Of a stretch of 64,000 nt of DNA, positions 5,914 to 56,878 are shown piece after piece. The translations under genes and the position numbers were made by a program. The notes below the pieces were generated by a model. It did no database searches. It had not been told where the DNA came from and worked only from the letters and a program-made list of their open reading frames with translations. Within the stretch, counting starts at the first letter, position 1, and each line of letters opens with the position of its first letter. The DNA lies in NCBI GenBank assembly GCA_965248535.1, contig CBDFJR010000005.1:1856001-1920000 (forward strand), in the 5' to 3' direction. The DNA comes from Phormidesmis sp. (lineage in GTDB: Bacteria; Cyanobacteriota; Cyanobacteriia; Leptolyngbyales; Leptolyngbyaceae).

Positions 5914-5922
5914 GCGGGTGAG

Positions 5923-8069: not shown

Positions 8070-8181
8070 GTGTCCATAATGCCGCAGTTGATCAGGGGGA
8101 ACATCTTCCTAAAGGTGGATAGCGATTGCTGCTGCCTAGAAAGCATTTAACCGCCCACAAGGTTAGAACTGTGTCGGTCAG

Positions 8182-27021: not shown

Positions 27022-27093
27022 GCGCAGTCCAAAAGGGTGACAGAAGTTGGATTGCTTGAGCGTGGTTTTTACATTATTTCCAGGGATTGACTA

Positions 27094-30000
27094 ATGGCTG
27101 CAAACCTATTCTTTCGAGTTCAATCAGTCCGACACTCCTTGACCCACTCCTGTATGAAGTGGTTAAGTCAGCACCGAGTCGATAGCTCAATCACGCTGGT
27201 GTTGGCGATCGTGTTTGCTGGAATTAGCTACCTGAGTGCTCAACAAATTCCCGATCCCCTGCTCACCGATTTCTACGCTCAGGATGTATGGTTTGGCGGG
27301 GATATTCCTACGGTTTTCGGCAACATTACCAGCCTGCAAAGTGATTTTGGGCGCAACAACAAGCATCCCCTATTTCCGTTGATTGCCTTCCCCCTCGTGT
27401 TTGGATTAGGCAAACTCCTACACTTGGAACCCGTTTCGGCAGCCAGGCTAGTCATTGCTCTGGTTGGGGCGAGTTGGATTGGGTCGCTCTATATTTTGTT
27501 TCGACTTCTGCCATGCCCTCGATTAGATGCCGTGATCTTCAGTTTGCTGGGTGGTGTCAGCGCAGCAGCGACGTTTTGGTTTGTGGTGCCTGAAACCTTT
27601 TCCTTTGGCTCACTGTCGATTTTGCTGGTGCTTGTGGTTGTTGCTTTGGCTCAACACCGCAAACTTGCTCCGGTTTGGTATGTGCTAGCAGGGGCCTTTT
27701 CCCTCAGCATCACGCTCACTAACTGGATGGTGGGACTGCTGGCCACGATCGTCAACCACCGTTGGAAAAAAGCGCTGCAAATTACCCTCGTGACCTTTCT
27801 GGTGGTAAATGTGCTGTGGGTGCTGCAACGATCGATTTTTCGCAATGCTGGCTATTCCTTCTCTCTAAAAACGTTTGTTGGCGAAAAAAAATTCATGTCT
27901 GCGCCAGAGTCTGAAGGCGTTTTGTCAGCCGTGAGTTCTTTTTTCTACCAAACGATCGTGATGCCTGCGACTCAAGTCCAAGATTCGCTGATTCGGGCGG
28001 GTTGGGCGCAACTGACGGCAAACACCTTAACTCCGGGGTCGGGGGGCTTTTGGGGAATGTTGGCAGTGGTTGCCTGGACAGCACTGTTTATTCTAGGAGC
28101 GTGGAGTTTCTTGACGACAAAACAGCAGCCTAAACTGCGAATTGTTGTAGGACTCGCACTGCTCGGACAGTTGCTGATCCACAGTGTCTATGGCAGGCAA
28201 GAGACCTTTATTTACTCGCTGCACTTTACTCCACTTTTGTTGACGGTAGCGGCCTTCAGTTCTTTATCTCGTCTGCGGTGGGTGGGGTTGGGTCTAGCCG
28301 GATTGTTGGTGGTCAGTGCAGGAATCAACAATCGATCGCAGTTCAACCAGATCACGGCTGCTTTGCAAACCTATGGGACACCCCAGCAGCAAGTTCAGGC
28401 GCAGATGCGATCGCGGCCGTCTGATTTCTGGCCCCGCAATCTAGGACATGTCATTCTAGCCACTCCGGGTAGCCGCGCCGAAGACAAAGCTTATTATGAA
28501 CCGGGCGGCAGCTTTAGCCCAGTGGCGGGCAGTTTTGGGGTGTCGATCTGGATGGTGGACAAAGATGGCATGCCGCAGATCACGAGTGACACTATTCCTC
28601 TTAATCAGATTCAGCAACAATTTACCAATCTGGGTCAGCAGCCTCCCGGAATTTCTGCAAAAACCGAGTTTTATCAGGCCTCCTGGCAAGCCACAAAATC
28701 CGGCTGGCGGCTAGCGCTGACGACTCCAGCCAATTCCCCGACTCGGCCCGTGCTGATGATTCGTAGCGTTGGGCCGGCGGGGGGAGCAGTCAATTCCCTA
28801 AACTGGAATGGTCAACGGCTGATGGTCAACGATCGCTGGTCTCTCCAACCGATCGCCTCTCCCGTTAAGGTGCATCTCGGCAGCGAGTCACCCGGTTGGG
28901 TCACTCAATCCTCCCCGACAGCGCAATGGCAAGACAAGTGGGGCTGGGGCTATGCGCGGCTAGAACTCACGCCCGGTAACACCTGGACTATCGATCTGAC
29001 CGACTCTGCTCCTCAGATTCCTGCCAATGCCATCGCGTCAAAACTGTCTCCTGATCTAGCCCTAGAGCTACCAGACGCGCAATTTGTCGAAAGCATCAAC
29101 GCTCAGACCTCTCATTTGTTGATGGGGCTGGTTGGAAATCGGACTCGTCTTGGCGATCCCCTCAGCTATCCGTTGCCGCGCCTGCGAGAAGGGGCTTATG
29201 AGATGGTGGCGCTGGCCCGCGCTGGACAGCTAGACACGGCAAAGCAGCTATCTACCTACTTCGCTGAAACTGACTTTCTCAACGGCATCCAGCCTCAAGC
29301 TGATGTGCCTGCCCTGGGAATTTGGGCGTTGGCGGCCGTGGCCGAGCAGGTGAGTCAGCCAGACTACGATCGCTTACTTTGGCCGCACATCCAGCGCAAA
29401 GTGGATCTTATTAGCGAGATGCTGGTGACCAATCGACCGGGCTACCCCGTGGCGGATAAGTCGCAGATTCCCTTTGCGGAATACCCAGATTTTCTAGCGC
29501 AGGATCTGGTTGGAGGCAAAATGGAGCAAACGTCTGGGCTAATCACTCTCGACCCAGCGGCATCGATCATGAGCTACCGCGCTCTGCTGGATGCGGCGAC
29601 CCTAGCCGATCGCGTCAACCAACCCAGCTTTGCCCAACGCTGGCGCGCTCAAGCTGAACGATTGCAGTCTGCCTGGCGTAAAGGCTTTGAACCCATTTTT
29701 GCTCAAGATCCTGCCACTTATGCCAATAGTCTATGGCCTAGCTGGATTGCCACCGCCGATCGCCCCGTGCTCACCCAGGCGCTGCAACAACACTGGAACT
29801 ATGATGCCAACGGAGCGCTCCGTCAGCCTGTCACCCCAGCCTTTAATCTGGCAGAAACACACCAATGGCTATTTCTCGGACAGAGCGATCGGGTCTGGAC
29901 AACCTTAAGATGGTGGTGGCAGCATCAGACCTCGCCGGGGCTGTATAGCTGGTGGGGCGAGACTCCTAAGCCGGGTGATGTTCCTAAAAGTTTCTCTCAT

Positions 30001-30324
30001 TGGCAACGCTATCGCGGTTGGATTAATTCGCCCAATGTCACCCCTCATTATGGAGCGGCAGCCGAAATGTTGTTGCTGCAATTGGATATGCTCACCTACC
30101 TTGATCGCTCCACCACTGAACCGACGATCGTCATTGGCGCAGGCGTTCCAAAAGAGTGGCTTAATAAACCCATGAGTGTGAAAGGGCTACCCATTGGCGG
30201 AAGTTTGGTCAACTGGACGTGGGACGGACAGCAAATGGCGGTTCAGATTCGAGGTAAGAAGGTCAACGTTCGGCTGGGGTCAGTCTTTCCATCAGCTACC
30301 TCAACCAAAGTGGAAATCCTCTAA
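27094..30324 (+). CDS. Multi-TM GT-C-like domain fused to a six-hairpin glycosidase-like domain (1076 aa)
   Basis: About 11 TM segments in the first ~420 aa with a KHPLF loop and VPETF; C-terminal helical region with YP...REGAY..VALARAG and PHY..AAEMLL. Confidence 0.6.
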   Translation: MAANLFFRVQSVRHSLTHSCMKWLSQHRVDSSITLVLAIVFAGISYLSAQQIPDPLLTDFYAQDVWFGGDIPTVFGNITSLQSDFGRNNKHPLFPLIAFPLVFGLGKLLHLEPVSAARLVIALVGASWIGSLYILFRLLPCPRLDAVIFSLLGGVSAAATFWFVVPETFSFGSLSILLVLVVVALAQHRKLAPVWYVLAGAFSLSITLTNWMVGLLATIVNHRWKKALQITLVTFLVVNVLWVLQRSIFRNAGYSFSLKTFVGEKKFMSAPESEGVLSAVSSFFYQTIVMPATQVQDSLIRAGWAQLTANTLTPGSGGFWGMLAVVAWTALFILGAWSFLTTKQQPKLRIVVGLALLGQLLIHSVYGRQETFIYSLHFTPLLLTVAAFSSLSRLRWVGLGLAGLLVVSAGINNRSQFNQITAALQTYGTPQQQVQAQMRSRPSDFWPRNLGHVILATPGSRAEDKAYYEPGGSFSPVAGSFGVSIWMVDKDGMPQITSDTIPLNQIQQQFTNLGQQPPGISAKTEFYQASWQATKSGWRLALTTPANSPTRPVLMIRSVGPAGGAVNSLNWNGQRLMVNDRWSLQPIASPVKVHLGSESPGWVTQSSPTAQWQDKWGWGYARLELTPGNTWTIDLTDSAPQIPANAIASKLSPDLALELPDAQFVESINAQTSHLLMGLVGNRTRLGDPLSYPLPRLREGAYEMVALARAGQLDTAKQLSTYFAETDFLNGIQPQADVPALGIWALAAVAEQVSQPDYDRLLWPHIQRKVDLISEMLVTNRPGYPVADKSQIPFAEYPDFLAQDLVGGKMEQTSGLITLDPAASIMSYRALLDAATLADRVNQPSFAQRWRAQAERLQSAWRKGFEPIFAQDPATYANSLWPSWIATADRPVLTQALQQHWNYDANGALRQPVTPAFNLAETHQWLFLGQSDRVWTTLRWWWQHQTSPGLYSWWGETPKPGDVPKSFSHWQRYRGWINSPNVTPHYGAAAEMLLLQLDMLTYLDRSTTEPTIVIGAGVPKEWLNKPMSVKGLPIGGSLVNWTWDGQQMAVQIRGKKVNVRLGSVFPSATSTKVEIL

Positions 30325-30466
30325 GCCTGACCAGTCATGGCAACCAGCCCTCAGTTTGGGGAGATTGTTAGACACTAGGAGCCAGCGATCGCGCCCACCC
30401 TGCCTAACATCTCCTGTCTTGAGCGTAAACTGTAGAGATATAGAATCGCGATCGCGCCCCTCTGTC

Positions 30467-30655
30467 ATGAACCCTAAGCTGCTAAAAATCACGCTCTGCA
30501 CCGCCATATTCTTAACTACCGTCTATGCGTCTGCCGCTTTAGCAGAGGGCGGCGGTGAGGGCGGCGGGAATGTACAAACGCCCGTGCAGGTAATTGTGCA
30601 AATCGCAGTAACGGCTGCTGTTTTAAAAGTGCTCGATCGCTTCAACTTACCCTAA
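30467..30655 (+). CDS. Small secreted/membrane protein (62 aa)
   Basis: Signal peptide ending ALA, EGGGEGGG linker, hydrophobic C-terminal helix. Confidence 0.7.
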   Translation: MNPKLLKITLCTAIFLTTVYASAALAEGGGEGGGNVQTPVQVIVQIAVTAAVLKVLDRFNLP

Positions 30656-30656
30656 A

Positions 30657-32018
30657 TTAAGAGAGTGCTTGACGCGCTCGATCGAGCTTATTTTGCGCCT
30701 CAAATCGGTGTTCTTGCCATCCTAAGCCGATCATACTAGCTACGAAAAGGGTATAGCCTGGCTCTTCTAGCTGCGAAAAAATGAGTCCAAACACAAACAC
30801 AGTCAGCATTAGGTATTTAGATAAATCGATGACACAAATATGCCACCACACGAGAAAGGCTAAATAAAAGTAGGACATCAGACCCAATAGTCCTAAATCT
30901 CCCCAGAGTCCAGCCCACCCGAACAAGGGAGAAAATAAACTGGATTGATCGCCCAACCAACTAGCCCCAACGGCTCTCCAAATTGCCTTACTAGCGGGGT
31001 GCATTGTTGCGCCTAGAGGTTGCAGCAAGCTCCAATAATTTTCTAGCATCCAGCCGCCCAATCGCCCGACCGTATGCCCTGGGCCAAGACCTAGCAGCCA
31101 GCACAAGGGAGATTCAAAATAGGTGGGAACGATGCGGAATGTCGCAAATTTCAGTCGAGTTGCTTCGCCATCGGCTCCGTAAATTTCGGGTCTGATCCAA
31201 ACAGTGTAAGGCTGGAGATACTCAATATTGTAAATTGCCCAGTAGAATGCGCTGAGAACCACCACACCAAGAATGAGATACATCAATGTTTTGCCAATAT
31301 CTTTGACATTGACTAGATAGAGCAAGCCATATCCAACGATGAAGGCGAGCAATACTTGCTTGGTGTCTGAGATGATGATGTGGTTAAAACACGCTAATGC
31401 GATCGCGCCCCGAAACCAGAGCGGCTTTGCTTTAGCCGTCACGAAGTAATAGACAGCAAAGGTGAGGGCAACTGAGCCGCCAATGACGTGCCCGGCTCCC
31501 TGCCCGATAAAAATTCCTTTAACGTTATCCTCTAGTCCAATGAGTTTGTCCATGTGAAACACATACTTTTGCACATAGGCAAACAGCATGTTGATCATGG
31601 CAAATCGCAGAATCCAACTGCGAAAATTTTGAAACCCCTCCTGCGTCATGGGCATACAGACGATGGTCAAGATCAAGATAAATGGTTCTGATAGCAATAA
31701 AAAATCTAGAGCTGCATTAATTACCCCGGCATCATTCAGCAAGGCGCTGGCGATCGTCACGGTCAGCAACAAAAATATACCAATCAACAATTGTCTAGAG
31801 ATAGCAATTTGTTTAGGGTCTTTGCTGCGCGATCGCAACAGCACCGATCCACAGGCTAGGGGAATCGTGACAAAGTGCAAAAAGTTGATGGCCGAAGGAA
31901 TCTTTAGGGCCGTCAAGACTCGCGTGAATAAAGCCGTGCCAACCCCCACTAGGGTTAGAGTCGAGTTTTTGACATACCCCTTTTGCTTAGATGTTGTTGG
32001 TTCTAATGTAGTACTCAT
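30657..32018 (-). CDS. Wzy polymerase / O-antigen ligase-like membrane protein
   Basis: About 11-12 TM; LLGLGPG and WGDLGLLG in the late loop; EPS context. Confidence 0.65.
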   Translation of the reverse strand: MSTTLEPTTSKQKGYVKNSTLTLVGVGTALFTRVLTALKIPSAINFLHFVTIPLACGSVLLRSRSKDPKQIAISRQLLIGIFLLLTVTIASALLNDAGVINAALDFLLLSEPFILILTIVCMPMTQEGFQNFRSWILRFAMINMLFAYVQKYVFHMDKLIGLEDNVKGIFIGQGAGHVIGGSVALTFAVYYFVTAKAKPLWFRGAIALACFNHIIISDTKQVLLAFIVGYGLLYLVNVKDIGKTLMYLILGVVVLSAFYWAIYNIEYLQPYTVWIRPEIYGADGEATRLKFATFRIVPTYFESPLCWLLGLGPGHTVGRLGGWMLENYWSLLQPLGATMHPASKAIWRAVGASWLGDQSSLFSPLFGWAGLWGDLGLLGLMSYFYLAFLVWWHICVIDLSKYLMLTVFVFGLIFSQLEEPGYTLFVASMIGLGWQEHRFEAQNKLDRARQALS

Positions 32019-32063
32019 TGATCGATCTGCTGATAGTACATCTGGTTTATGAACTCTAAATTT

Positions 32064-34142
32064 TTAATAGCCTACATAAAGAGGAATGTGCTTTCCGCTG
32101 CCCATATAGTTTTGCAGGCTGTGAGGGACTAGGTTACGGGTTACCCCATCTCGGATTTCTCGAACGTAGGTTGTGTAGTTGAGTCCGCTACTATAGTTTA
32201 TTTCTGCGAGGCTAATCGAAATTGCAGACTCATTGTTGATGAACATAGGATCGCTTTGTTGTCCACTAGCAGTGGCTGTTGTCGTATAGGCCAATCCGCC
32301 TAAGACTTCTGTTTTTCCGCCCGATCGAGTGTCAATGAGAGTACCGCCTCGCTCTGTCTTTAATCCCAAAATCCACAGGCTGCCCCCGTTATTTGTGATG
32401 TGAGTGCCCTGATTTTCAACATTAAATTGACGTGCCCAGATCTGCTGGTGATTAAACGTCCAGTTAGAAGATGGATTAGAAGACACATCTTCGAGAAAGA
32501 CATCCCCTGTTCCTGTCATGTTACCGGATACATTCAAAGAATGACGAATCACGATCGTCCGTGCCGACGCGTTCTCAAAGGTTGGGTTGGCATAATATCC
32601 GCTCTGTAACCGCTCAAACACCACCACTGAGCTACTGCCAGCGACCAGCTTGAAGCCTGGATTAGTGGGGTTAGAGTCGCTGCCAACCACCACATTGGAC
32701 TCCGTGCCTAGCACCCGGCGCACATTACTGCGGACGAGCACAGTTCCCCGCAAATCATAACCCCCGGCTGGGAAGTAAACCGTAGTGCGTCCAGAGTCGA
32801 TCGCCGCTTGAATGGCTGCGGTGTCATCTTTGCCATCGTTGGGAATGGCTCCATAGGCGACCACATTTGCCCAGGGAGTCGTTGTGGGATCGTCCCAGGG
32901 CACATCGGGCGTTTCTCGAATCGGCAAATTTAGCGTTTTCAAGGGAGAAGAAAACTGGCTGGTGACTCCGCCAGAAACAAATTCGGCGATCGTTGGCCCA
33001 ACCTGCGTGCTGGTGGCGTTGCGAATTGCTGCCTGATAGCCGGAGGTCGTGACATTACGCACTAGCAGATCAAGCGGAAAATCGCTCTGGATGGCGGGTT
33101 TGCGCCTTGCACCGCCCATACCTGTCAGCCGGGAATCGATCAGGGTCATCCGTCCGCCCGCATTGTAAACCGCCGTCACCGTGTTTGTGCTAGTCAAGCC
33201 ACGAATGTTAATCACCTGACCTGCGTTGTAGAACCCATACACACTCTGGTTTTTCAGCGTAATATTTTCAAAAGTTTGGCTGTTGACGGTGTGCCCGGTG
33301 CGAATGCCGTACTGGAATCCCTGAATCGTGACATTTTTGATCAAGAGCGGGCCAATCTCGTCCGTAAAGCTCATGTCCAAGCCGTTGATGCCCTGACCAT
33401 CGCCCGATCGAAGGGTGACATCGCGCACGGTGCCCTGGTTGCTGGCGTTAAACTGGAGGGCGATCGCTCCCTCATTCCCAGTTCCGGTGTCCACTGTCAG
33501 GTTACGAATCGAGTTGCGAAACCGTTGGGCCGGACTAGGGCCGGTAAAGATCACAGCCTTTGGAGAATTTGAGCGGGTGAATCCTGCTGCCTTATTTTTG
33601 AGCTTGACGATCGTCCCCTGTTCGCTTTGCCCTTGCAAAATGATGTTTTTGTAGTCATCCCCTTTGCCCGGAGTTCCCGCGGCCCAACTGAGGCGATCGG
33701 ACACCAGATAAACTCCGTTGGGCAAATAAATAATTCGTCCCCCATTAGGATAGGACTTCAAAGCTGCCTGAATTGCAGCCGTATCGTCTGTGATGCCATC
33801 TCCCTTTGCACCAAACTGGGTCTTGACGTTAACCACGCCAGCATCAGCGGGAAAGACGATGTTCTCTGGTGGGAGTGTAGTTGCCAAACTGATCAGAAAG
33901 CTACTCAACGGTGAGGCAGCCATGAGATTGTCCGTGGTAGCGCTTACCAGGTTGGGCTGAAAGGTCAGGGTATAAGCCCCACTGTCGTCGATCGTCCAAC
34001 TGCCACCAAGGGCCGTAATCTGACAAGCAGCGGTATGGGGTGTGTTATTGCTGCTGTTGTTCATACTCACTAACGCCGTCATCTGGTGGACGTTAGAGCC
34101 TGTCGCCAAGATATCGCTGCTATTCAACATTGCTACATTCAT
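32064..34142 (-). CDS. Pectate-lyase-superfamily (GH28/GH55-like) beta-helix glycanase
   Basis: Two motifs VNVKTQFGAKGDGITDDTAAIQAAL and NVVAYGAIPNDGKDDTAAIQAAID, each followed by Y.P.G.Y. Confidence 0.85.
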   Translation of the reverse strand: MNVAMLNSSDILATGSNVHQMTALVSMNNSSNNTPHTAACQITALGGSWTIDDSGAYTLTFQPNLVSATTDNLMAASPLSSFLISLATTLPPENIVFPADAGVVNVKTQFGAKGDGITDDTAAIQAALKSYPNGGRIIYLPNGVYLVSDRLSWAAGTPGKGDDYKNIILQGQSEQGTIVKLKNKAAGFTRSNSPKAVIFTGPSPAQRFRNSIRNLTVDTGTGNEGAIALQFNASNQGTVRDVTLRSGDGQGINGLDMSFTDEIGPLLIKNVTIQGFQYGIRTGHTVNSQTFENITLKNQSVYGFYNAGQVINIRGLTSTNTVTAVYNAGGRMTLIDSRLTGMGGARRKPAIQSDFPLDLLVRNVTTSGYQAAIRNATSTQVGPTIAEFVSGGVTSQFSSPLKTLNLPIRETPDVPWDDPTTTPWANVVAYGAIPNDGKDDTAAIQAAIDSGRTTVYFPAGGYDLRGTVLVRSNVRRVLGTESNVVVGSDSNPTNPGFKLVAGSSSVVVFERLQSGYYANPTFENASARTIVIRHSLNVSGNMTGTGDVFLEDVSSNPSSNWTFNHQQIWARQFNVENQGTHITNNGGSLWILGLKTERGGTLIDTRSGGKTEVLGGLAYTTTATASGQQSDPMFINNESAISISLAEINYSSGLNYTTYVREIRDGVTRNLVPHSLQNYMGSGKHIPLYVGY

Positions 34143-34382
34143 CGCTATGTTGTACTAGGATTATGGTGAACTCAATGTTAGAGGCGGGAGGAGTTGTTCA
34201 CCCAAGCCAACTTGCTGGGTAACCTCACTTACTAATCAAAGATTACTCTATCTTCAATCATATTCATTTTCTGTGTTCTAGGTAAGCTTGAGTTGCCGAA
34301 TCTAGTTTCAATCCCAGATATCAGTTTTTCGTAAAAAACTCAGAAGACTCGTACCAAATTGCGTTGCCGGAGTACCTCATTA

Positions 34383-35837
34383 CTAAGACTCTTCTCTCCT
34401 ATAAATGTCTAATTCAACAACCTCTTTTTTGTACTGAATAGATAGAGATTTGCCATGTTTATGCCATTTCCCTCCCAATTCAACCTGTAGCAGTGATGAG
34501 TCTTGAGGTCTAACAATTAGAGCTGAAACCTTTTCCTTCTCTTGAGGCGGAATTACTCTAAGGTAAGGTTTGTAAATAACAGTCTTACCTCCTTTCTTGG
34601 CAGCGAAATATGAAATCGGATCGCTGAGAACCCACTCACCAGAGCTAATATTTTCTTGGACAAAAGCTTCAACGCGAAAGTAGTTAGAAGAATTCCAGTT
34701 CAAAACCAGATCGATAAAGTTTAAATAGGGGGAGCTAATGAGAAATAAAACTATAAGAATTCCTAAAATTTGAGAACTCAATCGGCGATCGAGAGTGGTT
34801 TTGAGTAGCTTATCGAAGCTGAAGCAGATGCACACAGCAAGAGGAACAACCACCATCCAGCTATAACCGAACTGAAAGGCACCTGCTAACCGCATTCCGA
34901 GGGGAATCCAGAAAATTGCTGCTAGTCCAAATGAAAGCACTGAAACCCATTTGAACTTCCCTTTGAGAACTTTGTGGATAACTAGTGCGAAACATGAAAT
35001 TACTAAGACTTGAAGAATTCGATTACCAAAAATCCCTCCAATTTTGTCTCTCTGTGAAAAAGCTGAAATCGTGGGATTGTTTATGATTGAGGTTATGAAA
35101 TCATCCCAAACTCCATTAGCAGAGTAGAGAGTATAAGTACACAGAAATCCCACAAATAGTCCAAGAATTATCGCTATAAACTCTTTTAAGAACAACTTCC
35201 GAAGATAAATTAGCAATAAGACGCACAGTACAACTGTATATGCAGATAGCGCTAATCCTCCGAAAGGAAACAAAATACAAACGCCACTGAGAGAGAGATA
35301 ACGGAGCCAAGCTACCTGAACTGAGTATGCAAGTAGAGCCAATAAAGCCAAACTAGCCATCAGGACATCTGGCCGCCCCTGTTCAGCATTATTGGTATAA
35401 CCTAGTTGTAATAGCAGAAGAGTAATTAGAATGAGCCTATTATTTGCCGAGCTTATAAGCCTTAATCTAATTACAGCTTGCCAGAGCATTACTGCACAGG
35501 TCGCTATAAGCACACAATTGAATGAACGCGCTGTATAAATACCAAAACCAAAGAGTTGCATCCATAAATAGAGAAGAAATGAATATAGGGAGGGATAGCC
35601 GGCCCAAAATTTATCTTTTGTTTGAGCAAACCACGCAGACGAAGTGAACCCGTTGCCAAAATATAAATTGGCAGCAGGATCAATGAACATTATCTGATCC
35701 TGCCACGGACTCACGCTTGTCAATCTAAAGACTTGTACAAGACCAATCAATAAGAAGGCAAACAATATGATAACTACGACTACTGTTTCAGAACGGCTTA
35801 CTGTATATTTAGTATCAGGAAAATGTTCGATCTTCAT
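34383..35837 (-). CDS. GT-C fold (ArnT/PMT-like) membrane glycosyltransferase
   Basis: PWQDQ..FIDPAAN first loop, YPSLYSFLL..W..LFG, GRPD; many TM segments; AT-rich. Confidence 0.7.
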   Translation of the reverse strand: MKIEHFPDTKYTVSRSETVVVVIILFAFLLIGLVQVFRLTSVSPWQDQIMFIDPAANLYFGNGFTSSAWFAQTKDKFWAGYPSLYSFLLYLWMQLFGFGIYTARSFNCVLIATCAVMLWQAVIRLRLISSANNRLILITLLLLQLGYTNNAEQGRPDVLMASLALLALLAYSVQVAWLRYLSLSGVCILFPFGGLALSAYTVVLCVLLLIYLRKLFLKEFIAIILGLFVGFLCTYTLYSANGVWDDFITSIINNPTISAFSQRDKIGGIFGNRILQVLVISCFALVIHKVLKGKFKWVSVLSFGLAAIFWIPLGMRLAGAFQFGYSWMVVVPLAVCICFSFDKLLKTTLDRRLSSQILGILIVLFLISSPYLNFIDLVLNWNSSNYFRVEAFVQENISSGEWVLSDPISYFAAKKGGKTVIYKPYLRVIPPQEKEKVSALIVRPQDSSLLQVELGGKWHKHGKSLSIQYKKEVVELDIYRREES

Positions 35838-35950
35838 TGTTTTCCAGGCATGTAAAGCTAAATTTGCTTAGACTTTAAACGTTTAGATACTTATTAGCTC
35901 AGAAGTAATCGATGATTTGCTGCGTGTGTCTACAGTTAGAGAGTTGAAAA

Positions 35951-36988
35951 CTACCAATTATCAACCCGCATATAATTTTTAGGAATGTATCGGCCAACTC
36001 CGGGGTAACGCTCCCGCCAAGTCAGAGGTTGCTGAAGGTGAAGGGGAAGTTGCTGAGTGAGATCGGCAGTTTGCTTGCGAGAGAGGATCGATCGCTCACA
36101 GTAGAAAGGATTTTTTGGGCGCTGGCTGAAATAGTGAAAGAAAATCGCCGAGCGATCGGTCTTCACAGGCGGTTTTCCCCGATGATAGCAGCGGGCCGTA
36201 TCTGTAAAAACCACGGTTCCAGCCTTGCCAATACAGGAGATTAGCCAGTCGTGAAAGTCCGCATTGAGTAATTGTTGTAGCTCCGAGTTAGTCAAGCCTT
36301 TGAATTTGGGAAGTGTGGCAGTCAACCAATCATTAACCGTGGACTTGACCGTCTGAAACGGGCCGCCAAACTCGTCCACATCATTGAGGTATATAGCAAC
36401 CTTAGTCATCCTCCAGTCTTCTTTATCACGATGCCAGATGCGGGGGCCGACATCTCTGCCATCTGCCACGCTGTAGTAAAATGACAAGCCATCGTAGGCA
36501 ACGGGTAGACCCAGATAAGACTCGACAATTTTTAGAAGTCGTTCCGACAATCCCCAGAAAAAAATCTCTGGGCGCGCCATCAACTGAGCCGCTGTTGCCA
36601 TGAGAGTATGTTTGTGATCATGACCCGGCGATCGAGACTGCTGGGCCAGTTCAGTCGTGATCTGTTGGGCAGAGTCTAAAAGCAGTTGGCTATTCGGAAT
36701 ATCTAAGGCTTCTAAGGAGGTGACACAAACGCCCTCTTGCTCAAGTTGCTCCACGATCGCTCGATCGTTTGAGTCTAGCGGTGGTAGCTGATTTTTGTGT
36801 TGATTAAGCTGCTGTTGATATTGGGGCAACAGCACTGATTGCTCAAACCAATCGCTATTATGAGCTTTACAAGCAATATCCGAAGGAAGGCTTAATACCT
36901 TATTCAATACTCGATTGGTGAGGTGATAAAGCGGGTATAGATTGTTGAGCCGCAGGTGCGAAAGTGAATACAAGTAATTGACACGCAT
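35951..36988 (-). CDS. 2OG-Fe(II) oxygenase (PhyH-like)
   Basis: WHRD (HxD), YLNDV..GGPF, GTVVFTDT..CYHRG, distal R (DRSA). Confidence 0.85.
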   Translation of the reverse strand: MRVNYLYSLSHLRLNNLYPLYHLTNRVLNKVLSLPSDIACKAHNSDWFEQSVLLPQYQQQLNQHKNQLPPLDSNDRAIVEQLEQEGVCVTSLEALDIPNSQLLLDSAQQITTELAQQSRSPGHDHKHTLMATAAQLMARPEIFFWGLSERLLKIVESYLGLPVAYDGLSFYYSVADGRDVGPRIWHRDKEDWRMTKVAIYLNDVDEFGGPFQTVKSTVNDWLTATLPKFKGLTNSELQQLLNADFHDWLISCIGKAGTVVFTDTARCYHRGKPPVKTDRSAIFFHYFSQRPKNPFYCERSILSRKQTADLTQQLPLHLQQPLTWRERYPGVGRYIPKNYMRVDNW

Positions 36989-37075
36989 AGTCGTAGATTA
37001 TCTCTCGAAAAAGACCGGATAGCCCTACCTGGTTTAAGCTTTTTAGTCATCTTGAATTAAATCTGTACTCCTGAT

Positions 37076-40633: not shown

Positions 40634-40648
40634 TCTAGTCGTTAACGA

Positions 40649-41806: not shown

Positions 41807-42246
41807 AAATAGAAGTTGCTGGAATTGATCAAAACCGCTTTCGTCGTTAGACAGTTGTGCTGCTAAACAGAGCATCTATCCAGAGGTAAGTCTGTAGAAA
41901 GCTGCTCTAGTAAATCATAGAGTTGCGAGCAGAGAAATTTAGAAGAAATACGGAACCTTTGCTAAAAACTCATAATCAACCCCACGGGTGATGAGAACAG
42001 ATGCTTAGATCTTAATCAATCTTGCTCAGTCATCTTGCGGAGAGATTGCCTGCTATTTCGATTAAACTTTAAGGAGGATTAATGGTTGACCGCACTTTTG
42101 TGAAGTCTGGGTAAATTGTCTTCCACAGAGTTTCTGCATTTTCTGATAAGGCTCTTAACTATGGAAGTGACTACTTGAGTGGCACGTCCGATCGTGTTGA
42201 TTGCTTAACTCTGTTAACGTCACATCTCTGCAATGGGAACTGAGTA

Positions 42247-43383: not shown

Positions 43384-43401
43384 TCTCCACCGAGGCACAT
43401 C

Positions 43402-44334
43402 ATGAAGTTGGCTATTTTATTCTGGTTTTATAAAGAACCAGACGTGTGTAAAGATCGCTTAGAACTTTTGCGCCAACACAACCCGACTGCTCTAATTTAT
43501 GGCTTATATGGCGGCAATCCAGACGCAGCTAGCCACTATCAATCTTTGTTAGCTCCCTATCTCAATGATTTCTATGCCTTCACCGAAGATAGAGATTCCC
43601 TCTGGAAATGGCTTCAGGGCGACCTGCTGCTGACCCACTGGTATCGGGAGCGGGGCAAAGATTTAGACTGGGACACGGTGGTGATTGTTCAGTGGGATAT
43701 GTTGGTGTTTGGAGCCGTTGAAGACCTCTTTTCGATGCTGAAGAAAGATCAAATTCTGCTGTCGGGGCTACGACCGATCGCAGAGGTTGAACAGGATTGG
43801 ACTTGGGTCGCTCCCAAAGTTCCAGAACGCAGACACCAATATCTAGAGTTTTTGACTCATGTCCGTGAAACCTATCATTACCACCACGAGCCTCTAGGCT
43901 GCTTATTTATTGTGGTTGGTCTGCCCAGAATCTTTTTAGACAAATACTCCAGCGTAGAACAGCCAGAGCTAGGATTCATTGAATACCGCATCCCCATGTA
44001 TGCCCAAATCTTCGGCATACCTTTTTGTGAAAATCATCCGTTTCAAGCCTGGTGGGTAGATGTCGATCCAAGTTTTCAGGCCAAAAATCCACTTAAGCGA
44101 GCCGTCAACGCGCTGCACCTAAAGTTGAATCCAAACCCCCTAAACCCTGCCCGGCGAGATATTTCTCTCATTCCCATCTACAGGCATTTGTGCAGTCAAA
44201 CAGGTGCTAGAATTTTCCACCCCTACCAGCAGACCTTTCCTATTCAGAAACGGCAAAGAGCAGCCGCATTGCTAAATGAGTTAAAGCAAGACTTTAGTTG
44301 GCTGACTCAAAAACTGACGGGGCAAAAACGGTAG
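43402..44334 (+). CDS. Hypothetical protein, possibly GT-A-like
   Basis: 310-aa ORF in the GT operon; DTVVIVQWDMLV resembles a DXD-position strand. Confidence 0.55.
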   Translation: MKLAILFWFYKEPDVCKDRLELLRQHNPTALIYGLYGGNPDAASHYQSLLAPYLNDFYAFTEDRDSLWKWLQGDLLLTHWYRERGKDLDWDTVVIVQWDMLVFGAVEDLFSMLKKDQILLSGLRPIAEVEQDWTWVAPKVPERRHQYLEFLTHVRETYHYHHEPLGCLFIVVGLPRIFLDKYSSVEQPELGFIEYRIPMYAQIFGIPFCENHPFQAWWVDVDPSFQAKNPLKRAVNALHLKLNPNPLNPARRDISLIPIYRHLCSQTGARIFHPYQQTFPIQKRQRAAALLNELKQDFSWLTQKLTGQKR

Positions 44335-44355
44335 CAGTGAATCGCCCCATAGGTC

Positions 44356-44652
44356 TTATTGAGGAGCTTTAACCAGCAGGGCTGTCCAGAGATGTGAAGG
44401 ATTTGCGTAGTAGTTGATCACCTCCACTTGATAGCACCCTCGCGAGAGCACTAGATAATCCCCACGATTAATTCTTTTGCCATACCCAGTCATGTGTGCC
44501 TGACTACCGTCGGCGGTTATTTCAAATACATAGTCGATGCCATTTATCTGCTGAGTATAGTTATGGACTTTTGATGAAACGGGTGAGACAAGGGTCAATA
44601 GCCGATCAAGAAAATTTATAGAGGGGACTGTCTGTTCTGGGTCAGTCAACAT
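44356..44652 (-). CDS. Small hypothetical protein
   Basis: HNYTQ..GIDYVFE...YQVE.INYYANP..LWTALL. Confidence 0.7.
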   Translation of the reverse strand: MLTDPEQTVPSINFLDRLLTLVSPVSSKVHNYTQQINGIDYVFEITADGSQAHMTGYGKRINRGDYLVLSRGCYQVEVINYYANPSHLWTALLVKAPQ

Positions 44653-45220
44653 AAAAATGATTCCACGGTGAATGTGGGAGAGGGATCGAAATCTCAGGGA
44701 GGGCGTTTGCAGAATAACCTAAGCAATTTGAACAGCAGTATAGTCTAGCTACCTTTACCTGTGACAAAAAAATCAAGACTAGTTTAAGAAAGCCGCTGAA
44801 AGTAAGGATGAAAAGCTGTGCCAGTTTTGTTGCCTACACCCAGGGATGAGCGCCAGAATCTGGGGTGTGAATCAACGAGAAGTTTTTACCGTGTATCTTA
44901 CCCTAGCCTGTCTATCGGTTCAAGGCTCCCTGCTGTTTTGATAACGCTGGCTCCCAAATGTCCCAAATCTGCTCTCCAATCGTCAAAAAATGCTTGATCA
45001 GACCTTCGCGCCCGGTTTCAAAGTCCCCTTAATTTTCTTGCGTTGTCGTTCCATCTTGTTCTGTCCAATCCAGCCGATGACTTGAGTATTTTCCCCACCC
45101 GTTGTTCTAAGCTTCAGTGAGAAATGCTACTGAAAAAACTTATAATTCGGGCGATGGATTAACTGGAAGCTGTGTTCTCTCTTAAACATTAAAAGTGGAT
45201 TGCTAGATCCCCTGACTAAA

Positions 45221-46156
45221 ATGAGTAACCAACCGAAGAATCCCTACCTTGCTGCTTTGCGGCCTCGACAATGGACGAAAAATCTGATCGTTTTTGCGGC
45301 CTCTCTATTCTCGTTTAACCTGACTGTTCAAGCGCTATTGGGTAGTCTATTGGCATTTGGACTGTTTTGCTGCACGTCTAGTAGTTTTTATCTGATTAAC
45401 GATCTGGCGGATGTCGAGTCCGATCGCAAGCATCCTGTTAAGTGCAAGAGACCGATCGCGGCGGGGCTGATCAGCGTTCCTATCGCGATGGCAATGGCGG
45501 TTGTGCTGCTGGGCGGCTCTCTGTTGACCGCTTGGCTGTATGACAAACGGTTGGGAGCGGCGATCAGTTGCTATGCGCTGCTTCAGGTTGCTTATAACTT
45601 AAAGCTGAAGCGCACCGTGATCTTAGATGTGGTGGCGATCGCGACTGGATTTGTGCTCAGGGCCTATGGCGGTGCGGCAGCAACCAATGTGGTTCTTTCC
45701 TCTTGGTTTTTGCTCTGCACGGGGATGCTGGCGCTTTTTCTAGGCATCGAAAAGCGGAAAGCCGAGATTCGTCTGGCAGAGTTTAAGGGTGGCCCCACCC
45801 GCGCTGTCTTGAGTCGCTATTCTCAAGATCTTCTCAGCCGCATGGAGAACACGGTGACGACGGGGGCGGTGATGACCTATGCAATTTGGAGTTCGGGGCC
45901 CAATGTGAATGGGGCAACGACTCCGTGGATGCTGCTGACGTTGCCCTTTGTGCTGTATGGAATTTTTCGCTACCAGTTGCTCAGTGACCCGCAAGAAATT
46001 TCTCGGAGAACTGATCTGGGTCAAGAAAAAGGCGGCAAAACAGAGCGCCCCGAAGAAATTTTGCTCACCGATCGTCCGATTTTGCTGACGATATTGGCTT
46101 GGATTTTGACAACACTGGCGATTTTAACGTTGAAGCATCAAGGAGTCATTGATTAA
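45221..46156 (+). CDS. Decaprenyl-phosphate phosphoribosyltransferase-like (UbiA family)
   Basis: RPRQWTKNLIVF, YLINDLADVESDRKHPVKCKRPIAAG, GFVLRA, KRKAE, YGIFRY, RPEE. Confidence 0.9.
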   Translation: MSNQPKNPYLAALRPRQWTKNLIVFAASLFSFNLTVQALLGSLLAFGLFCCTSSSFYLINDLADVESDRKHPVKCKRPIAAGLISVPIAMAMAVVLLGGSLLTAWLYDKRLGAAISCYALLQVAYNLKLKRTVILDVVAIATGFVLRAYGGAAATNVVLSSWFLLCTGMLALFLGIEKRKAEIRLAEFKGGPTRAVLSRYSQDLLSRMENTVTTGAVMTYAIWSSGPNVNGATTPWMLLTLPFVLYGIFRYQLLSDPQEISRRTDLGQEKGGKTERPEEILLTDRPILLTILAWILTTLAILTLKHQGVID

Positions 46157-46157
46157 G

Positions 46158-46667
46158 ATGTCCACTCACAAAACTCTTCCACGATCGGCTGATAATTTAA
46201 TGATGCTAGATCTGCATTTGCTCACCGCAAACGGGATCTTAGGGATAATTTTAGATTTAGACAACACGATCGTATCGGAAGACGATCGCTATCTTTCTCC
46301 CGGTGCAGAAGCCTGGATTAGCAAAGCAAAACAGGAAGGATTGAAATTTTTTATCCTCTCCAACGGCAAGCGTCGTCACCGGGTGAAGTTTTGGTCGCAG
46401 AGACTGGATGTGCCTGCCATCAGTCCGGCTCGCAAGCCGTTTCCGTCTTCCTTTCGTAAAGCTTTTAAGAGAATGGGTCTCAAGCCGTTCCAGGTTGTGG
46501 TGATCGGAGACAGCCGTCACACAGATATGCTAGGGGCGTGGTTAGTGGGCTGTCCTAGCATTCAGGTTGCCACACTGCCCCATCCCCTGCGCTGGTGGGA
46601 AAAACTGTTTGGTAAGCGGGTGCAAATTCCCTACCCAGCCGATCTAGAATTGTTGGATTTCACCTGA
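46158..46667 (+). CDS. YqeG-family HAD IIIA phosphatase
   Basis: ILDLDNT, LSN, ARKP, VIGDSRHTDMLGA. Confidence 0.9.
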   Translation: MSTHKTLPRSADNLMMLDLHLLTANGILGIILDLDNTIVSEDDRYLSPGAEAWISKAKQEGLKFFILSNGKRRHRVKFWSQRLDVPAISPARKPFPSSFRKAFKRMGLKPFQVVVIGDSRHTDMLGAWLVGCPSIQVATLPHPLRWWEKLFGKRVQIPYPADLELLDFT

Positions 46668-46707
46668 CAGCAATAGAGGGCTTTAATGCTCAATCATTAC
46701 TAACATC

Positions 46708-48034
46708 TTGACATCCTCACCGTCTTAAAGGAGCGGTGATTCCTAAGACTCACGACTTAGGTTTCTGCTTCATTGCAACTGCCCTCAAAGCGAATGCTGA
46801 TCCGGTCTTACGTTCGCTCCACAGACTTTCACGGCAAGCCCTGCCGCAAGAATATTATTTGCTGCGTTGATGTCCCGGTCATGGTGTGTCCCGCAACTGG
46901 GGCAGTCCCAGTCTCGAATCTCCAACGGCAACTTATCCACGATGTAACCACAATGCCCACACCGCTTAGAACTCGGAAACCATCGGTCAATCTTGACGAA
47001 GCTGCGACCATACCAATCGCACTTGTATTCAAGCTGTCTGACCAACTCAGACCATGCAGCATCGCTGATGGACTTAGCCAGCTTCCGATTCTTAACCATG
47101 TTCTTCACAGCCAAGTCCTCAACGGCGATGGTTTGGTTTTCACGCACCAATCGAGTTGTCAACTTGTGAAGAAAATCATTTCTCGCATCGCTAATCTCTG
47201 CATAGACTCTAGCGACTTTGATCCGAGCTTTGTGTCGGTTGTTCGACCCTTTTTGCTTGCGACTCAACGCCTTCTGCGCCAAGCGCAGTTTGCGACGCTT
47301 GGCAGCAAAGCCTTTGGGGTTGACAACCTTCTCGCCTGTACTCAGAGCGACCAGGCTAGTGATGCCCAAATCAATTCCAATTTGGTTGGGCGATTCGGGC
47401 AAGGGTTCAACCTCAACATCCACCAGCAGAGAAACCGTCCATCTCCCAGCCGGGGAGAGTTTCACCGTGACGGTGGAGGGTTCAGTACCTTGGGGGAGTT
47501 GTCTACTCCATCGGATATTGAGCGGTTCAGCATCCTTAGCCAGAAATACCTGAGCATCTCTGAACTTAAATGCCGACTTGGTAAATTCAGCACTGCCGCC
47601 GTGATGCTTCTTCTTGAAGTTGGGGTATTGTGCCCGTCCTGCAAAGAAATTGGTAAACGCTTTCTGAAGGTGACGCAATCCCTGTTGCAGAGGAACGCAA
47701 CTCACTTCGTTGAGAAATTGCAAGGCTTCCGCTTTCTTCCACGCGGTCAGCATGGTCGAGGTTTCAGCGTAGCCAACTCGTTCCTGACGCTCGTACCACG
47801 CCTCTGTCCTAGCGGCGAGGGCGCGGTTATACACCAATCGAGTACAGCCCATCGTGCGCCTCAGCAAGGTTTCTTGCTCAGGTGTTGGATAGAAGCGGTA
47901 CTTGAAGGCTTTCTGCGTCATGTCTCACAGTATAGCGTCTATTCTGTGAGAAGCGTGAGAGATTGGGCACTCGATCCAGTGCTCGCTCCTATCCCTCCCT
48001 GTCCTAAAGGATCAGGGTTTCTCGGAGGTTTTCG
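46708..48034 (-). mobile_element. IS200/IS605-family (IS1341-like, tnpB-only) element
   Basis: Minus strand: left end GAAACCCTGATCCTTTAGGACAGGG hairpin, tnpB, right end TCACCG...CGGTGAGGATGTCAA. Confidence 0.85.
46785..47921 (-). CDS. tnpB: TnpB RNA-guided endonuclease
   Basis: AFKYRFYPT; RuvC GIDLG / AVEDL / DRDINAA intact; CGHC...CPSC. Confidence 0.97.
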   Translation of the reverse strand: MTQKAFKYRFYPTPEQETLLRRTMGCTRLVYNRALAARTEAWYERQERVGYAETSTMLTAWKKAEALQFLNEVSCVPLQQGLRHLQKAFTNFFAGRAQYPNFKKKHHGGSAEFTKSAFKFRDAQVFLAKDAEPLNIRWSRQLPQGTEPSTVTVKLSPAGRWTVSLLVDVEVEPLPESPNQIGIDLGITSLVALSTGEKVVNPKGFAAKRRKLRLAQKALSRKQKGSNNRHKARIKVARVYAEISDARNDFLHKLTTRLVRENQTIAVEDLAVKNMVKNRKLAKSISDAAWSELVRQLEYKCDWYGRSFVKIDRWFPSSKRCGHCGYIVDKLPLEIRDWDCPSCGTHHDRDINAANNILAAGLAVKVCGANVRPDQHSL

Positions 48035-48376
48035 ATGACCCCTAATGTTCTCTTCACCCTTCTGATTTTGACCACGGTTGGTCTAAACACTGTTGCACAA
48101 ACTTTATTAAAGCTGGGATCGGGTTCTAATCCTCTCAATGGCTATCTTTTGGGTGGGCTGCTGTCCTATGGATTGAGTACGGTTTTCTATATTTTGGTTC
48201 TGGGTAAGTTTAATCTTTCGGTGGCCTATCCCGTCGTGATTGGGTTAACAGTTGCCGCCACCACGCTTGCTGGAGCGATTATTTTGCGGGAAAAAGTTGA
48301 GGTCTCCCAGTGGGTGGGGATCGGACTGATGCTCAGTGGCATCTTGGCGATCGCTTTTGCCAAAGGCAGCAGCTAA
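48035..48376 (+). CDS. SMR/EamA-like small 4-TM transporter (ArnE/F-like)
   Basis: AQTLLK, NLSVAYP, ILREKV...QWVGIGL. Confidence 0.85.
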   Translation: MTPNVLFTLLILTTVGLNTVAQTLLKLGSGSNPLNGYLLGGLLSYGLSTVFYILVLGKFNLSVAYPVVIGLTVAATTLAGAIILREKVEVSQWVGIGLMLSGILAIAFAKGSS

Positions 48377-56831: not shown

Positions 56832-56878
56832 GCTAGAAGCTAGTCTGAACCGTTACTTGAGAAAGTCTCAGAAACAAG

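Follow-up and report, generated by a model that had tools for sequence, protein, structure and literature searches.

Gene content of the locus

The window analysed here is a stretch of 64,000 nt from Phormidesmis sp. contig CBDFJR010000005.1, and all coordinates are positions within it. An ORF check recovered, exactly where the sequence-only reading had placed them, the five genes which that reading assigned to a lipid-linked pentose decoration system: a UbiA-superfamily protein (45221..46156, + strand), a stand-alone HAD phosphatase (46158..46667, +), an SMR-family protein with 4 TM segments (48035..48376, +) and two GT-C-like membrane proteins of 1076 aa (hereafter M1076; 27094..30324, +) and 484 aa (34383..35837, − strand). 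Alternative TTG starts exist for UbiA (45200) and HAD (46149). A hexapeptide-repeat (LbH) O-acetyltransferase gene (26419..27021, +; PF00132, 8.8e-21) is also present, and a Wza/Wzc locus in the window provides a surface-polysaccharide setting. The cassette is split here, acetyltransferase and M1076 occupying 26-30 kb and UbiA-HAD-SMR 45-48 kb.

HAD and SMR are parted by a TnpB-only element of the IS200/IS605 family (46708 to ~48034-48040, − strand; NF040570, 372 bits), whose tnpB gene (46785-47921, −) is antisense to UbiA-HAD-SMR. The bounds of this ~1.33 kb IS were set by BLAST against its own genome, where full-length copies (~1.34 kb) occur at 88% and 82% identity along with one partial copy, and its ends coincide with short-read contig breaks in two runs. 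Once the IS is removed, HAD and SMR are separated by ~40 bp, compared to 1-64 bp in 7 related loci, which agrees with the earlier description of a contiguous trio interrupted by an IS.

The SMR protein passes the Pfam gathering cut-off for PF00893 (32.6 vs 23.7 bits) while its best NCBIfam match, ArnE (NF011625), reaches 36.6 bits against a cut-off of 92; it is therefore an SMR-family member and not an ArnE orthologue. It is intact and full length relative to 15 orthologues and its TM1 carries no acidic residue. The protein probably acts as the flippase of a lipid-linked pentose, an activity that is likewise putative for the transporters in the part of the published account of three-component systems drawn on here (PMC11127046).

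A predicted phosphoribosyltransferase and a HAD-IIIA phosphatase

As had been proposed, the UbiA protein falls among the polyprenyl-phosphate phosphoribosyltransferases (PPPRS). It scores 253.2 bits with the NCBIfam model for decaprenyl-phosphate phosphoribosyltransferase (NF008978; curated equivalog cut-off 207) and at most 51 bits with quinone, haem and chlorophyll prenyltransferase models, with which it does not cluster. Its match to Rv3806c (PDB 8j8j_D, E 4.7e-42) is full-length, aligning residues 17-307 to chain positions 18-297. Residues 60-68 read NDLADVESD and fit the NDxxDxxxD motif; all 31 orthologues compared share N60, D61 and D64, and at least 90% of them have D68. The same motif lies in cytoplasmic loop II of Citrobacter ORF15 (N247, D248, D251, D255), according to the portion of that study used here (PMC11127046). 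Homology and conserved catalytic residues thus suggest that the protein converts PRPP into polyprenyl-P-ribose-5-P.

The HAD protein belongs to the YqeG/PGP-phosphatase-type HAD-IIIA group (TIGR01668, 158.9 bits vs cut-off 89.1), and its DLDNT sequence (residues 33-37, the DxDxT nucleophile motif) is invariant in 29 orthologues. NF006088 did not match it at E<=0.01, and the PRP-type HAD-IB domain fused to PPPRS is absent here, its place being taken by this separate gene. We consider the HAD protein a candidate 5-phosphatase of polyprenyl-P-ribose-5-P. Its HAD-IIIA subfamily counts against such a role, whereas the proven phosphoribose phosphatase domain is HAD-IB. Fused HAD-IB forms do exist in other cyanobacteria, such as a 651-aa HAD-UbiA-GtrA fusion in locus L048 (NF006088, 632 bits; gtrA_1, 165 bits), and in L034 a HAD-IB substitutes for the YqeG-type HAD within the cassette.

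Two predicted GT-C proteins, one linked to the cassette

Structure models bear out a GT-C fold for both membrane proteins. The M1076 model (pLDDT 82.1) has a DUF6080-type membrane part of 11 helices (about residues 1-430) and a ~630-aa outer part (about 450-1076) predicted to form a beta-sandwich, an (alpha/alpha)6 barrel and a second beta-sandwich. Aligned with VIA-align, residues 23-432 resemble ALG12 (Z 23.9, rmsd 3.3, 330 aligned), Pmt1/2 (Z 22.4), ArnT (Z 20.5) and AftB (Z 19.2), with Z 18-24 over about 330-356 residues for 8 GT-C chains, while residues 448-1076 match GH78, GH15 and GH94 enzymes at Z 22-26. The first outer loop contains invariant W66, F67 and D70. No tie between the M1076 family and PMT_2-type GT-Cs emerged from profile comparison (11% and 0.6%). 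Pfam DUF6080 is matched by 33 of 87 M1076 relatives, and a search for this DUF6080-like family yielded 2,646 representative clusters at E<=0.001.

The 484-aa protein (model pLDDT 82.7) likewise resembles ALG9 (Foldseek E 3.2e-6) and ArnT (5f15, E 7.2e-5, TMq 0.58), and GT-C chains account for all 23 of its matches at E<=0.001. No Pfam match was found at E<=0.05, PMT_2 being matched by 4 of its 26 relatives, and hhalign relates it to PMT_2-type neighbours (95.3%, E 2.3e-8, 305 columns). Its proposed membership in the system found no support: it is absent from all 51 loci carrying an M1076 homologue, and just 2 homologues were seen in 400 sampled genomes, both in genomes without the UbiA enzyme. 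The remark that no GT2 polyprenol-phosphate glycosyltransferase feeds these proteins stands for the window, where no PF00535-type GT2 was found among 54 ORFs (Pfam; 22 at E<=0.01, 32 at E<=1e-5), but not for the genome, which encodes a GT2-GtrA protein elsewhere as another possible feeder.

Conservation of the cassette

As a background rate, 14 of the 401 genomes sampled from the phylum carry a close UbiA orthologue. In 9 of 12 close UbiA loci, HAD lies directly 3′ of UbiA and the UbiA-HAD-SMR trio is contiguous and co-directional, answering the neighbourhood check proposed with the sequence-only reading; L034, with its HAD-IB, makes a tenth. The usual order in relatives is UbiA-HAD-SMR-(acetyltransferase)-GT-C, mostly in one co-directional block. 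Among the 51 M1076 loci, HAD lies within 10 kb in 29 and UbiA in 26, the missing UbiA genes falling where contigs end, all on the same strand. Where at least 6 kb is available on both sides, UbiA is in the flank of 15 out of 21 loci; among 15 additional genomes checked, 13 carry UbiA elsewhere, and none was found in two M1076-bearing MAGs. An M1076-domain match occurs in 3 of the 401 sampled genomes and the trio is present in all three. M1076 is the dedicated GT-C partner of the trio. The LbH acetyltransferase gene is tightly coupled to the GT-C as a regular fifth cassette gene: in 20 of 51 loci it precedes the GT-C by 21-487 bp, in the same orientation. A gene arrangement recurring across this many genomes is beyond chance.

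A PRPP synthetase gene adjoins the cassette in L032 and L034; in L033, from a congener of L032, a matching unscanned ORF occupies the same position.

Proposed pathway and alternatives

We regard the region as probably a cyanobacterial counterpart of the three-component systems by which pentofuranose side groups are attached to extracytoplasmic glycans. The UbiA class, the trio, the GT-C folds, the partnership with M1076 and the missing DprE1 all fit the pentose-decoration reading proposed from sequence, whereas its tie to the 484-aa GT-C found no support. We infer every catalytic step in this organism. The UbiA-type enzyme would move ribose-5-phosphate from PRPP to polyprenyl phosphate, as homology and catalytic residues suggest, and the YqeG-type HAD would strip the 5-phosphate. 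The SMR protein, probably as a dimer, would then flip polyprenyl-P-ribofuranose to the periplasmic face, where M1076, a putative pentofuranosyltransferase, would put the sugar on the polysaccharide of the Wza/Wzc locus, its glycosidase-like outer domain perhaps holding or trimming the acceptor.

Ribofuranose side groups are reported for the EPS of Nostoc commune. For the donor sugar here, ribofuranose is our best guess. In line with the earlier reading, no DprE1 orthologue was found: the 99.76%-complete genome holds no PF04030 (ALO-domain) protein, neither a DprE1 (FAD_binding_4 plus ALO)/DprE2 pair nor a dedicated epimerase was found in it, and it gave only partial matches (24-28% identity over the FAD domain) to the DprE1-like proteins of two close UbiA loci (L040, L042) in which DprE1-like and SDR genes occur instead of HAD and SMR. 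With no epimerase of this kind, and with DprE1/E2-bearing relatives lacking HAD and SMR, the sugar most probably stays ribofuranose. The assignment is not secure, since the lone SDR ORF13 of Citrobacter O2 suffices to turn undP-Ribf into undP-Xylf in the part of the account cited here (PMC11127046). That the same system converts the lipid-linked ribose to xylofuranose or arabinofuranose ahead of transfer, by an epimerase not recognisable as DprE1/E2, strikes us as unlikely but worth keeping in mind. Candidates would be the extended SDRs in the window or the GMC oxidoreductase and SDR pair at 55158-57973. GMC genes are near the cassette in 9 of 51 loci (L056, L074, L079, L083, L089, L091, L092, L097, L099): L083 and L089 carry a GMC oxidoreductase and two SDRs within the cassette, between GT-C on one side and SMR on the other, and in L074 a counterpart of our GMC-SDR pair (64% and 65% identity) lies 3′ of the GT-C; a 'choline dehydrogenase' label also appears in one elaborate candidate system in SI Fig. 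S12 of Kelly, a figure from the portion of the source used here (PMC11127046). However, neither GMC nor SDR accompanies the cassette in most loci with long flanks, and the pair in our window sits 7 kb past SMR, beyond WecG, Wzc, a DUF218 protein and a kinase. Homologues of the window GMC (>=45% identity) occur in 12 other sampled genomes, only two of which have UbiA (G152, G306), far from GMC or on another contig. The GMC enzyme is accompanied by a Tat-signal partner in several loci.

The IS and the split cassette may hamper expression in Phormidesmis sp. A stronger version, in which the IS, the antisense tnpB and the separation of the GT-C from the donor genes stop coordinated expression and leave the cassette inactive or crippled, appears to us somewhat less probable than the epimerised donor. 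The element does end just 0-3 nt ahead of the SMR start codon, and the genes form a single co-directional block in most relatives; against this, the five ORFs are all intact and full length relative to orthologues, GGAGG lies 6 nt upstream of the SMR ATG, and separation is found elsewhere too, with UbiA 5-8 kb from the GT-C in L068, L073 and L079 and on another contig or >10 kb away in at least 10 genomes. Least probable of all, and in our view very unlikely, is that M1076 is mainly a membrane-anchored periplasmic glycoside hydrolase or phosphorylase, polyprenyl-P-ribose serving another GT-C or being the end product. The GH-like outer domain keeps invariant acidic residues, and PMT_2-type or GT87-type GT-Cs follow the trio in cassettes lacking an M1076 homologue. 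Yet the similarity of the membrane domain to GT-C transferases and the invariant first-loop residues argue for a glycosyltransferase, as do stand-alone membrane-domain forms of 400-460 aa, free of the outer part, which occur after the trio (L035) or inside the cassette (L036).

Comparison with known systems

The logic of the pathway is already known, with experimental proof obtained in Citrobacter in 2024, and it is the helper proteins that differ here. Citrobacter youngae O1/O2 uses ORF15 (PRP-PPPRS), ORF14 (MATE) and ORF12 (GT-C, GT136), as given in the part of the account we draw on (Kelly et al. 2024, PMC11127046). As in that system, linked PPPRS, transporter and GT-C genes are found in one glycan locus in the window. 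Within the limits of that part of the source, both systems combine a UbiA-type synthase with the identical catalytic motif (PRPP-dependent, here by prediction), a phosphatase of the HAD superfamily, a small membrane transporter and a GT-C enzyme bearing an extra outer domain in a surface-polysaccharide locus, and the pentose added depends, in Citrobacter and presumably here, on whether an epimerase is present. A separate gene of YqeG type (HAD-IIIA) encodes the phosphatase here, in contrast to the fused HAD-IB PRP domain of Citrobacter, the transporter is SMR-type rather than MATE, the GT-C is DUF6080-type with a ~630-aa six-hairpin glycosidase-like module rather than the small beta-rich CBM of ORF12, and the LbH acetyltransferase is a regular fifth gene only in the cyanobacterial cassette. 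Candidate loci with SMR transporters and with a separate phosphatase are listed in the SI part drawn on (PMC11127046). Literature searches found no description of a PRPP/UbiA pentofuranose cassette in cyanobacteria.

The mycobacterial decaprenyl-phospho-arabinose (DPA) pathway (Rv3806c, Rv3807c, DprE1/E2, Rv3789, Emb/Aft GT-Cs) shares a homologous first enzyme and, as proposed here, a lipid-linked donor that is flipped and consumed by GT-C enzymes, AftB being among the structural matches of M1076. It differs in that no DprE1/DprE2 orthologue was found in our genome, the phosphatase is HAD-type and not PAP2-type, and the product would probably be ribose, not arabinose, used for decoration and not as a polymer. 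The undecaprenyl-P-Ara4N flippase ArnE/ArnF and the transferase ArnT also pair a small SMR-type 4-TM protein with a GT-C that uses a polyprenyl-P-pentose, and ArnE is the top NCBIfam match of our SMR protein while ArnT appears in the fold matches of both GT-Cs. The score lies far under the ArnE cut-off, and the single SMR gene implies a homodimer as opposed to the ArnE/ArnF heterodimer; the donor would come from PRPP rather than from a UDP-sugar via GT2.

Sheath and slime polysaccharides of cyanobacteria shape biofilms, soil crusts and desiccation tolerance, and to our knowledge no genes have been assigned to the formation of their pentose side groups. We speculate, at low confidence, that M1076 founds a new GT family, joining in one polypeptide a DUF6080-type GT-C pentofuranosyltransferase and a catalytically active six-hairpin domain of glycosidase- or phosphorylase-like type, and that GMC enzymes and SDRs replace DprE1/E2 in some cyanobacteria. 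If so, a single periplasmic machine would trim and decorate the sheath polysaccharide, and a GMC flavoenzyme with SDRs would be a new epimerisation route for lipid-linked pentoses. The cassette of UbiA, HAD, SMR, acetyltransferase and GT-C offers a testable gene set for pentose side groups, and a large uncharacterised DUF6080-like membrane family would probably consist of GT-C glycosyltransferases. The three-component scheme described in 2024 probably extends to a further phylum, with both the HAD subfamily and the GT-C family exchanged.

An IS-interrupted trio in a surface-polysaccharide locus

All five reading frames of the sequence-only reading are present with the coordinates and strands claimed: a UbiA-type protein (45221-46156, +), a HAD phosphatase (46158-46667, +) and a four-TM SMR protein (48035-48376, +), hereafter the trio, along with two membrane proteins of 1076 aa (M1076; 27094-30324, +) and 484 aa (M484; 34383-35837, -). 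They are found within a surface-polysaccharide locus with rmlCDAB, a Wza-type exporter, a Wzc-type tyrosine kinase, six GT4 genes, WecG and an ABC transporter. A scan of 54 window ORFs returned no PF00535-type GT2, as had been noticed before. The cassette is split here, with an acetyltransferase and the GT-C protein M1076 at 26419-30324 and the trio at 45221-48376. Divergent to M1076 and following it (30657-34142, -) are a 453-aa multi-pass membrane protein without family match and a 692-aa pectate-lyase-fold protein, found again in 11 and 7 related loci, respectively.

HAD and SMR are separated by a TnpB gene (46785-47921, -). A BLAST search of the Phormidesmis genome places the IS from 46708 to about 48034-48040, with full-length copies at 88% and 82% identity (both in contig C2) and one partial copy elsewhere in the genome. 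The SMR ORF starts immediately at the IS end (48035), and the IS end provides a GGAGG 6 nt upstream of its start codon. Short-read contigs end at the IS borders; a joint from 46732 to 48013 has low depth and only 25 letters on one side, too weak for an empty-site call. The Rfam scan of 44300-49000 gave no match at E<=0.01, and promoter and terminator patterns were not more frequent than in shuffled sequences. A second TnpB gene is present in the window at 8407-9648.

Protein assignments of the trio

UbiA scores 253.2 bits on the decaprenyl-phosphate phosphoribosyltransferase model NF008978 (cut-off 207) and at most 51 bits on the models of quinone, haem and chlorophyll prenyltransferases. Its alignment to the solved Rv3806c enzyme (8j8j, E 4.7e-42) is full-length, and the protein keeps, at residues 60-68, the NDxxDxxxD motif whose residues matter in Citrobacter ORF15, as described in PMC11127046. 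Score, alignment and motif therefore set the protein apart from the quinone and chlorophyll prenyltransferases, in line with its proposed identity. The same query returned one unannotated fragment among phages and 65 plasmid records.

The HAD protein belongs to the YqeG-type HAD-IIIA phosphatases (TIGR01668, 158.9 bits; cut-off 89.1) and has the nucleophile motif DLDNT. A further match is to the mitochondrial PGP phosphatase family, which strips the head-group phosphate off a membrane lipid. The four-TM protein lies above the Pfam SMR threshold (32.6 vs 23.7), and its top NCBIfam match is ArnE, at 36.6 bits, far under the cut-off of 92. Drug-exporting SMR proteins are known to require a glutamate in TM1; here no acidic residue occurs in TM1, N18 and T19 are invariant, and comparison with 15 orthologues indicates a full-length protein.

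Conservation of the trio

The UbiA query matches 42 of 401 sampled genomes of the phylum at E<=1e-30, and close orthologues (52-74% identity) occur in 13 other genomes, 12 of which were inspected with 10-kb flanks. The proposed contiguity of the trio proved to be conserved: UbiA-HAD-SMR are contiguous and co-directional in nine of these 12 loci (L031, L032, L033, L035-L039 and L041; L-numbers denote fetched loci, mostly from other genomes), L032 and L033 being congeners. In L034 the order is UbiA-SMR-PMT_2-HAD-PRPP synthetase, with a HAD of the HAD-IB type. A PRPP synthetase also adjoins the cassette in L032, and we infer the same for an ORF of equal size and matching place in its congener L033, which was outside that Pfam scan.

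A GT-C-type gene directly follows or adjoins the trio. It is of PMT_2 type in L031, L032, L034, L036 and L038. In L035, which also has a GT87, it is an M1076-domain homologue (40% identity); L037 and L039 have weak M1076-domain homologues.

In another cyanobacterium, a single 651-aa chain combines HAD-IB, UbiA/PPPRS and GtrA (L048:230-2185, +; NF006088 632 bits, gtrA_1 165 bits), a fusion that joins phosphatase, synthase and a small flippase-type domain.

M1076 is a GT-C protein tied to the trio

Nearly all of the 197 relatives of M1076 (E<=1e-5) are cyanobacterial proteins of about 1,080 aa annotated as hypothetical. A profile search with the membrane domain alone reached 2,646 representative clusters (E<=0.001), the majority being stand-alone proteins 400-460 aa long, and 33 of 87 members of this domain family match Pfam DUF6080. 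The AlphaFold model (pLDDT 82.1, pTM 0.71) predicts about 11 helices (residues 1-430), followed by a beta-sandwich, an (alpha/alpha)6 barrel and a last beta-sandwich. A fold search run without Foldseek bore out the suspected GT-C fold, all eight rows on residues 18-432 being GT-C enzymes: ALG12 (Z 23.9, rmsd 3.3, 330 aligned), Pmt1/2 (Z 22.4), Pmt4 (Z 20.6), ArnT (Z 20.5) and AftB (Z 19.2), then PglB, AglB and STT3, with Z values that clearly exceed the roughly 13 obtained for unrelated helical bundles. For the outer part, the matches (Z 22-26) are to GH78 rhamnosidases, GH15-type enzymes and GH94/GH65 phosphorylases. W66, F67 and D70 are invariant in the first outer loop and D64 nearly so, in agreement with where GT-C enzymes usually have their catalytic aspartate (PMC11127046). 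PDB sequence searches with M1076 and M484, as single sequences and as profiles, returned nothing useful, and hhalign gave no support for kinship of the M1076 family with the M484 family (0.3%) or the PMT_2-type neighbours (11% and 0.6%).

The supposed tie between M1076 and the trio was borne out in 51 loci with an M1076 homologue (10-kb flanks): UbiA lies in the flank in 26, HAD in 29 (three of them cut by a contig end) and the window-type SMR in 23, all on the strand of the GT-C gene. Where at least 6 kb is available on both sides, UbiA is present in 15 of 21 loci. The commonest order is UbiA-HAD-SMR-(LbH acetyltransferase)-GT-C; L052, L053, L057 and L058 show acetyltransferase-GT-C-UbiA-HAD-SMR, as does L056, but with a PMT_2-type gene between GT-C and UbiA. 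Genome-wide search of 15 of the 22 loci without UbiA in the flank found a match elsewhere in 13 genomes (10 at >=68% identity, two Brocadiaceae at 41-42%, one Nitrospira at 39%) and none in two MAGs. Among the 401 sampled genomes, matches to the M1076 query were confined to the Phormidesmis genome, G306 and G340, and all three have the trio.

A cyanobacterial-type cassette gene at 43-60% identity also occurs on contigs L070, L088, L090 and L096, filed as MAGs of Gammaproteobacteria, Rhizobium, Phycisphaeraceae and Tatlockia; these assignments are probably due to mis-binning. True homologues from beyond the phylum seem to be present in L093 (a Nitrospira chromosome) and in L094 and L099 (both Brocadiaceae).

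In 20 of 51 loci the gene of the hexapeptide-repeat (LbH) O-acetyltransferase precedes the M1076-type GT-C by 21-487 bp and shares its strand, and it is also upstream of M1076 in the window (26419-27021, +). The substrate of this enzyme may be the lipid-linked pentose or the acceptor. SAM-dependent methyltransferase genes lie within or adjoin the cassette in some genomes (L032:10617-11255; L087:3170-3853; L073:5374-6258), insertions that could lead to methylated pentose variants.

Which pentose is added

In the published systems, no epimerase leads to Ribf, one SDR to Xylf and DprE1/E2 to Araf, according to PMC11127046. The sequence-only reading saw no DprE1/E2 in the window, and no orthologue was found in the whole genome (99.76% complete) either: it encodes no ALO-domain protein, and its matches to DprE1-like proteins of cyanobacteria are weak and partial. 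None of the 12 close UbiA loci combines HAD+SMR with DprE1/E2: L040 and L042 lack both HAD and SMR and encode a DprE1-like FAD enzyme together with a short-chain dehydrogenase instead, L042 additionally having GtrA. Our best guess, held with moderate confidence, is that the added pentose is ribofuranose.

An SDR epimerase that escaped recognition may still alter the pentose, and the GMC oxidoreductase and SDR at 55158-57973 are kept, as a rival only, as a candidate DprE1/E2 analogue. Such a set may exist elsewhere: L083:3793-14155 and L089:360-10586 share the order UbiA-HAD-GT-C-(small ORF)-GMC oxidoreductase-SDR-(197-aa ORF)-SDR-SMR, and their GMC and SDR genes may form a DprE1/E2-like epimerase set, next to an SMR of a divergent subtype (27-32% identity). 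However, 10 of 12 genomes with close homologues of the window GMC lack UbiA, and across genomes this GMC and its adjacent SDR are untied to UbiA.

A pair formed by a protein of about 200 aa, with an N-terminal twin-arginine-like MKRRKFL signal, and a following GMC oxidoreductase adjoins the M1076-type GT-C in L079:2652-4860, L091:13510-15877, L092:4102-6342, L097:1443-3680 and L099:3620-6048, an arrangement pointing to a cassette-linked periplasmic flavoprotein dehydrogenase. In the Phormidesmis genome, a locus after fabF and tkt (L114, G000:C5:82000-93000) encodes a 655-aa fusion of FAD oxidoreductase and GtrA, followed by two large membrane proteins that match PMT_2 weakly (ORFs 3043-5010, 5116-7380 and 7392-9308); in L042 it is the UbiA and DprE1-like cluster that occupies this fabF-tkt setting.

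M484 stands apart

M484 also has the GT-C fold foreseen for it (model pLDDT 82.7, pTM 0.86): Foldseek returned 23 matches at E<=0.001, every one a GT-C chain, among them ALG9 (E 3.2e-6) and ArnT 5f15 (E 7.2e-5, TMq 0.58). Its family aligns with the PMT_2-type GT-Cs found after UbiA trios elsewhere (hhalign 95.3%, E 2.3e-8). Its proposed membership of the pentose system did not stand, M484 being present in none of the 51 M1076 loci. Its homologues in the 401-genome sample are limited to G230 and G150 (34-36% identity), among FkbM methyltransferases, and neither genome has a UbiA match at E<=1e-30. M484 as second user of the donor was dropped for want of linkage in both samples. The GC content falls to 0.40 over the gene (34001-36000) from about 0.50 around it, suggesting separate acquisition. 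The genome encodes 11 other PMT_2 matches and a GT2-GtrA protein, a possible maker of another lipid-linked donor.

Relation to known systems

The sequence-only route, from PRPP via polyprenyl-P-ribose-5-P and polyprenyl-P-ribose to flipping and GT-C transfer onto EPS, largely holds as the likely pathway, with M1076 and not M484 as its putative transferase. Searches of the literature on DUF6080, cyanobacterial DPPRS, GT136/PPPRS and cyanobacterial EPS ribofuranose found no description of the cassette, and neither "cyanobacteri" nor "Nostoc" occurs in the main text and SI of PMC11127046. The type of mechanism is already published there: Kelly et al. 2024 combined genetics with in-vitro assays and NMR to show that alpha-Ribf or Xylf side chains are added in the periplasm by a PRP-PPPRS fusion together with a GT-C (GT136), a MATE transporter being implicated in flipping by bioinformatics and gene context (PMC11127046). 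Candidate loci in their SI Fig. S12 include SMR transporters, a separate phosphatase and a "choline dehydrogenase" (PMC11127046). The likeness to these systems would lie in the way of working, whereas the window cassette differs in phosphatase subfamily and GT-C family, its GT-C has a large glycosidase-like domain, and an acetyltransferase is a regular member.
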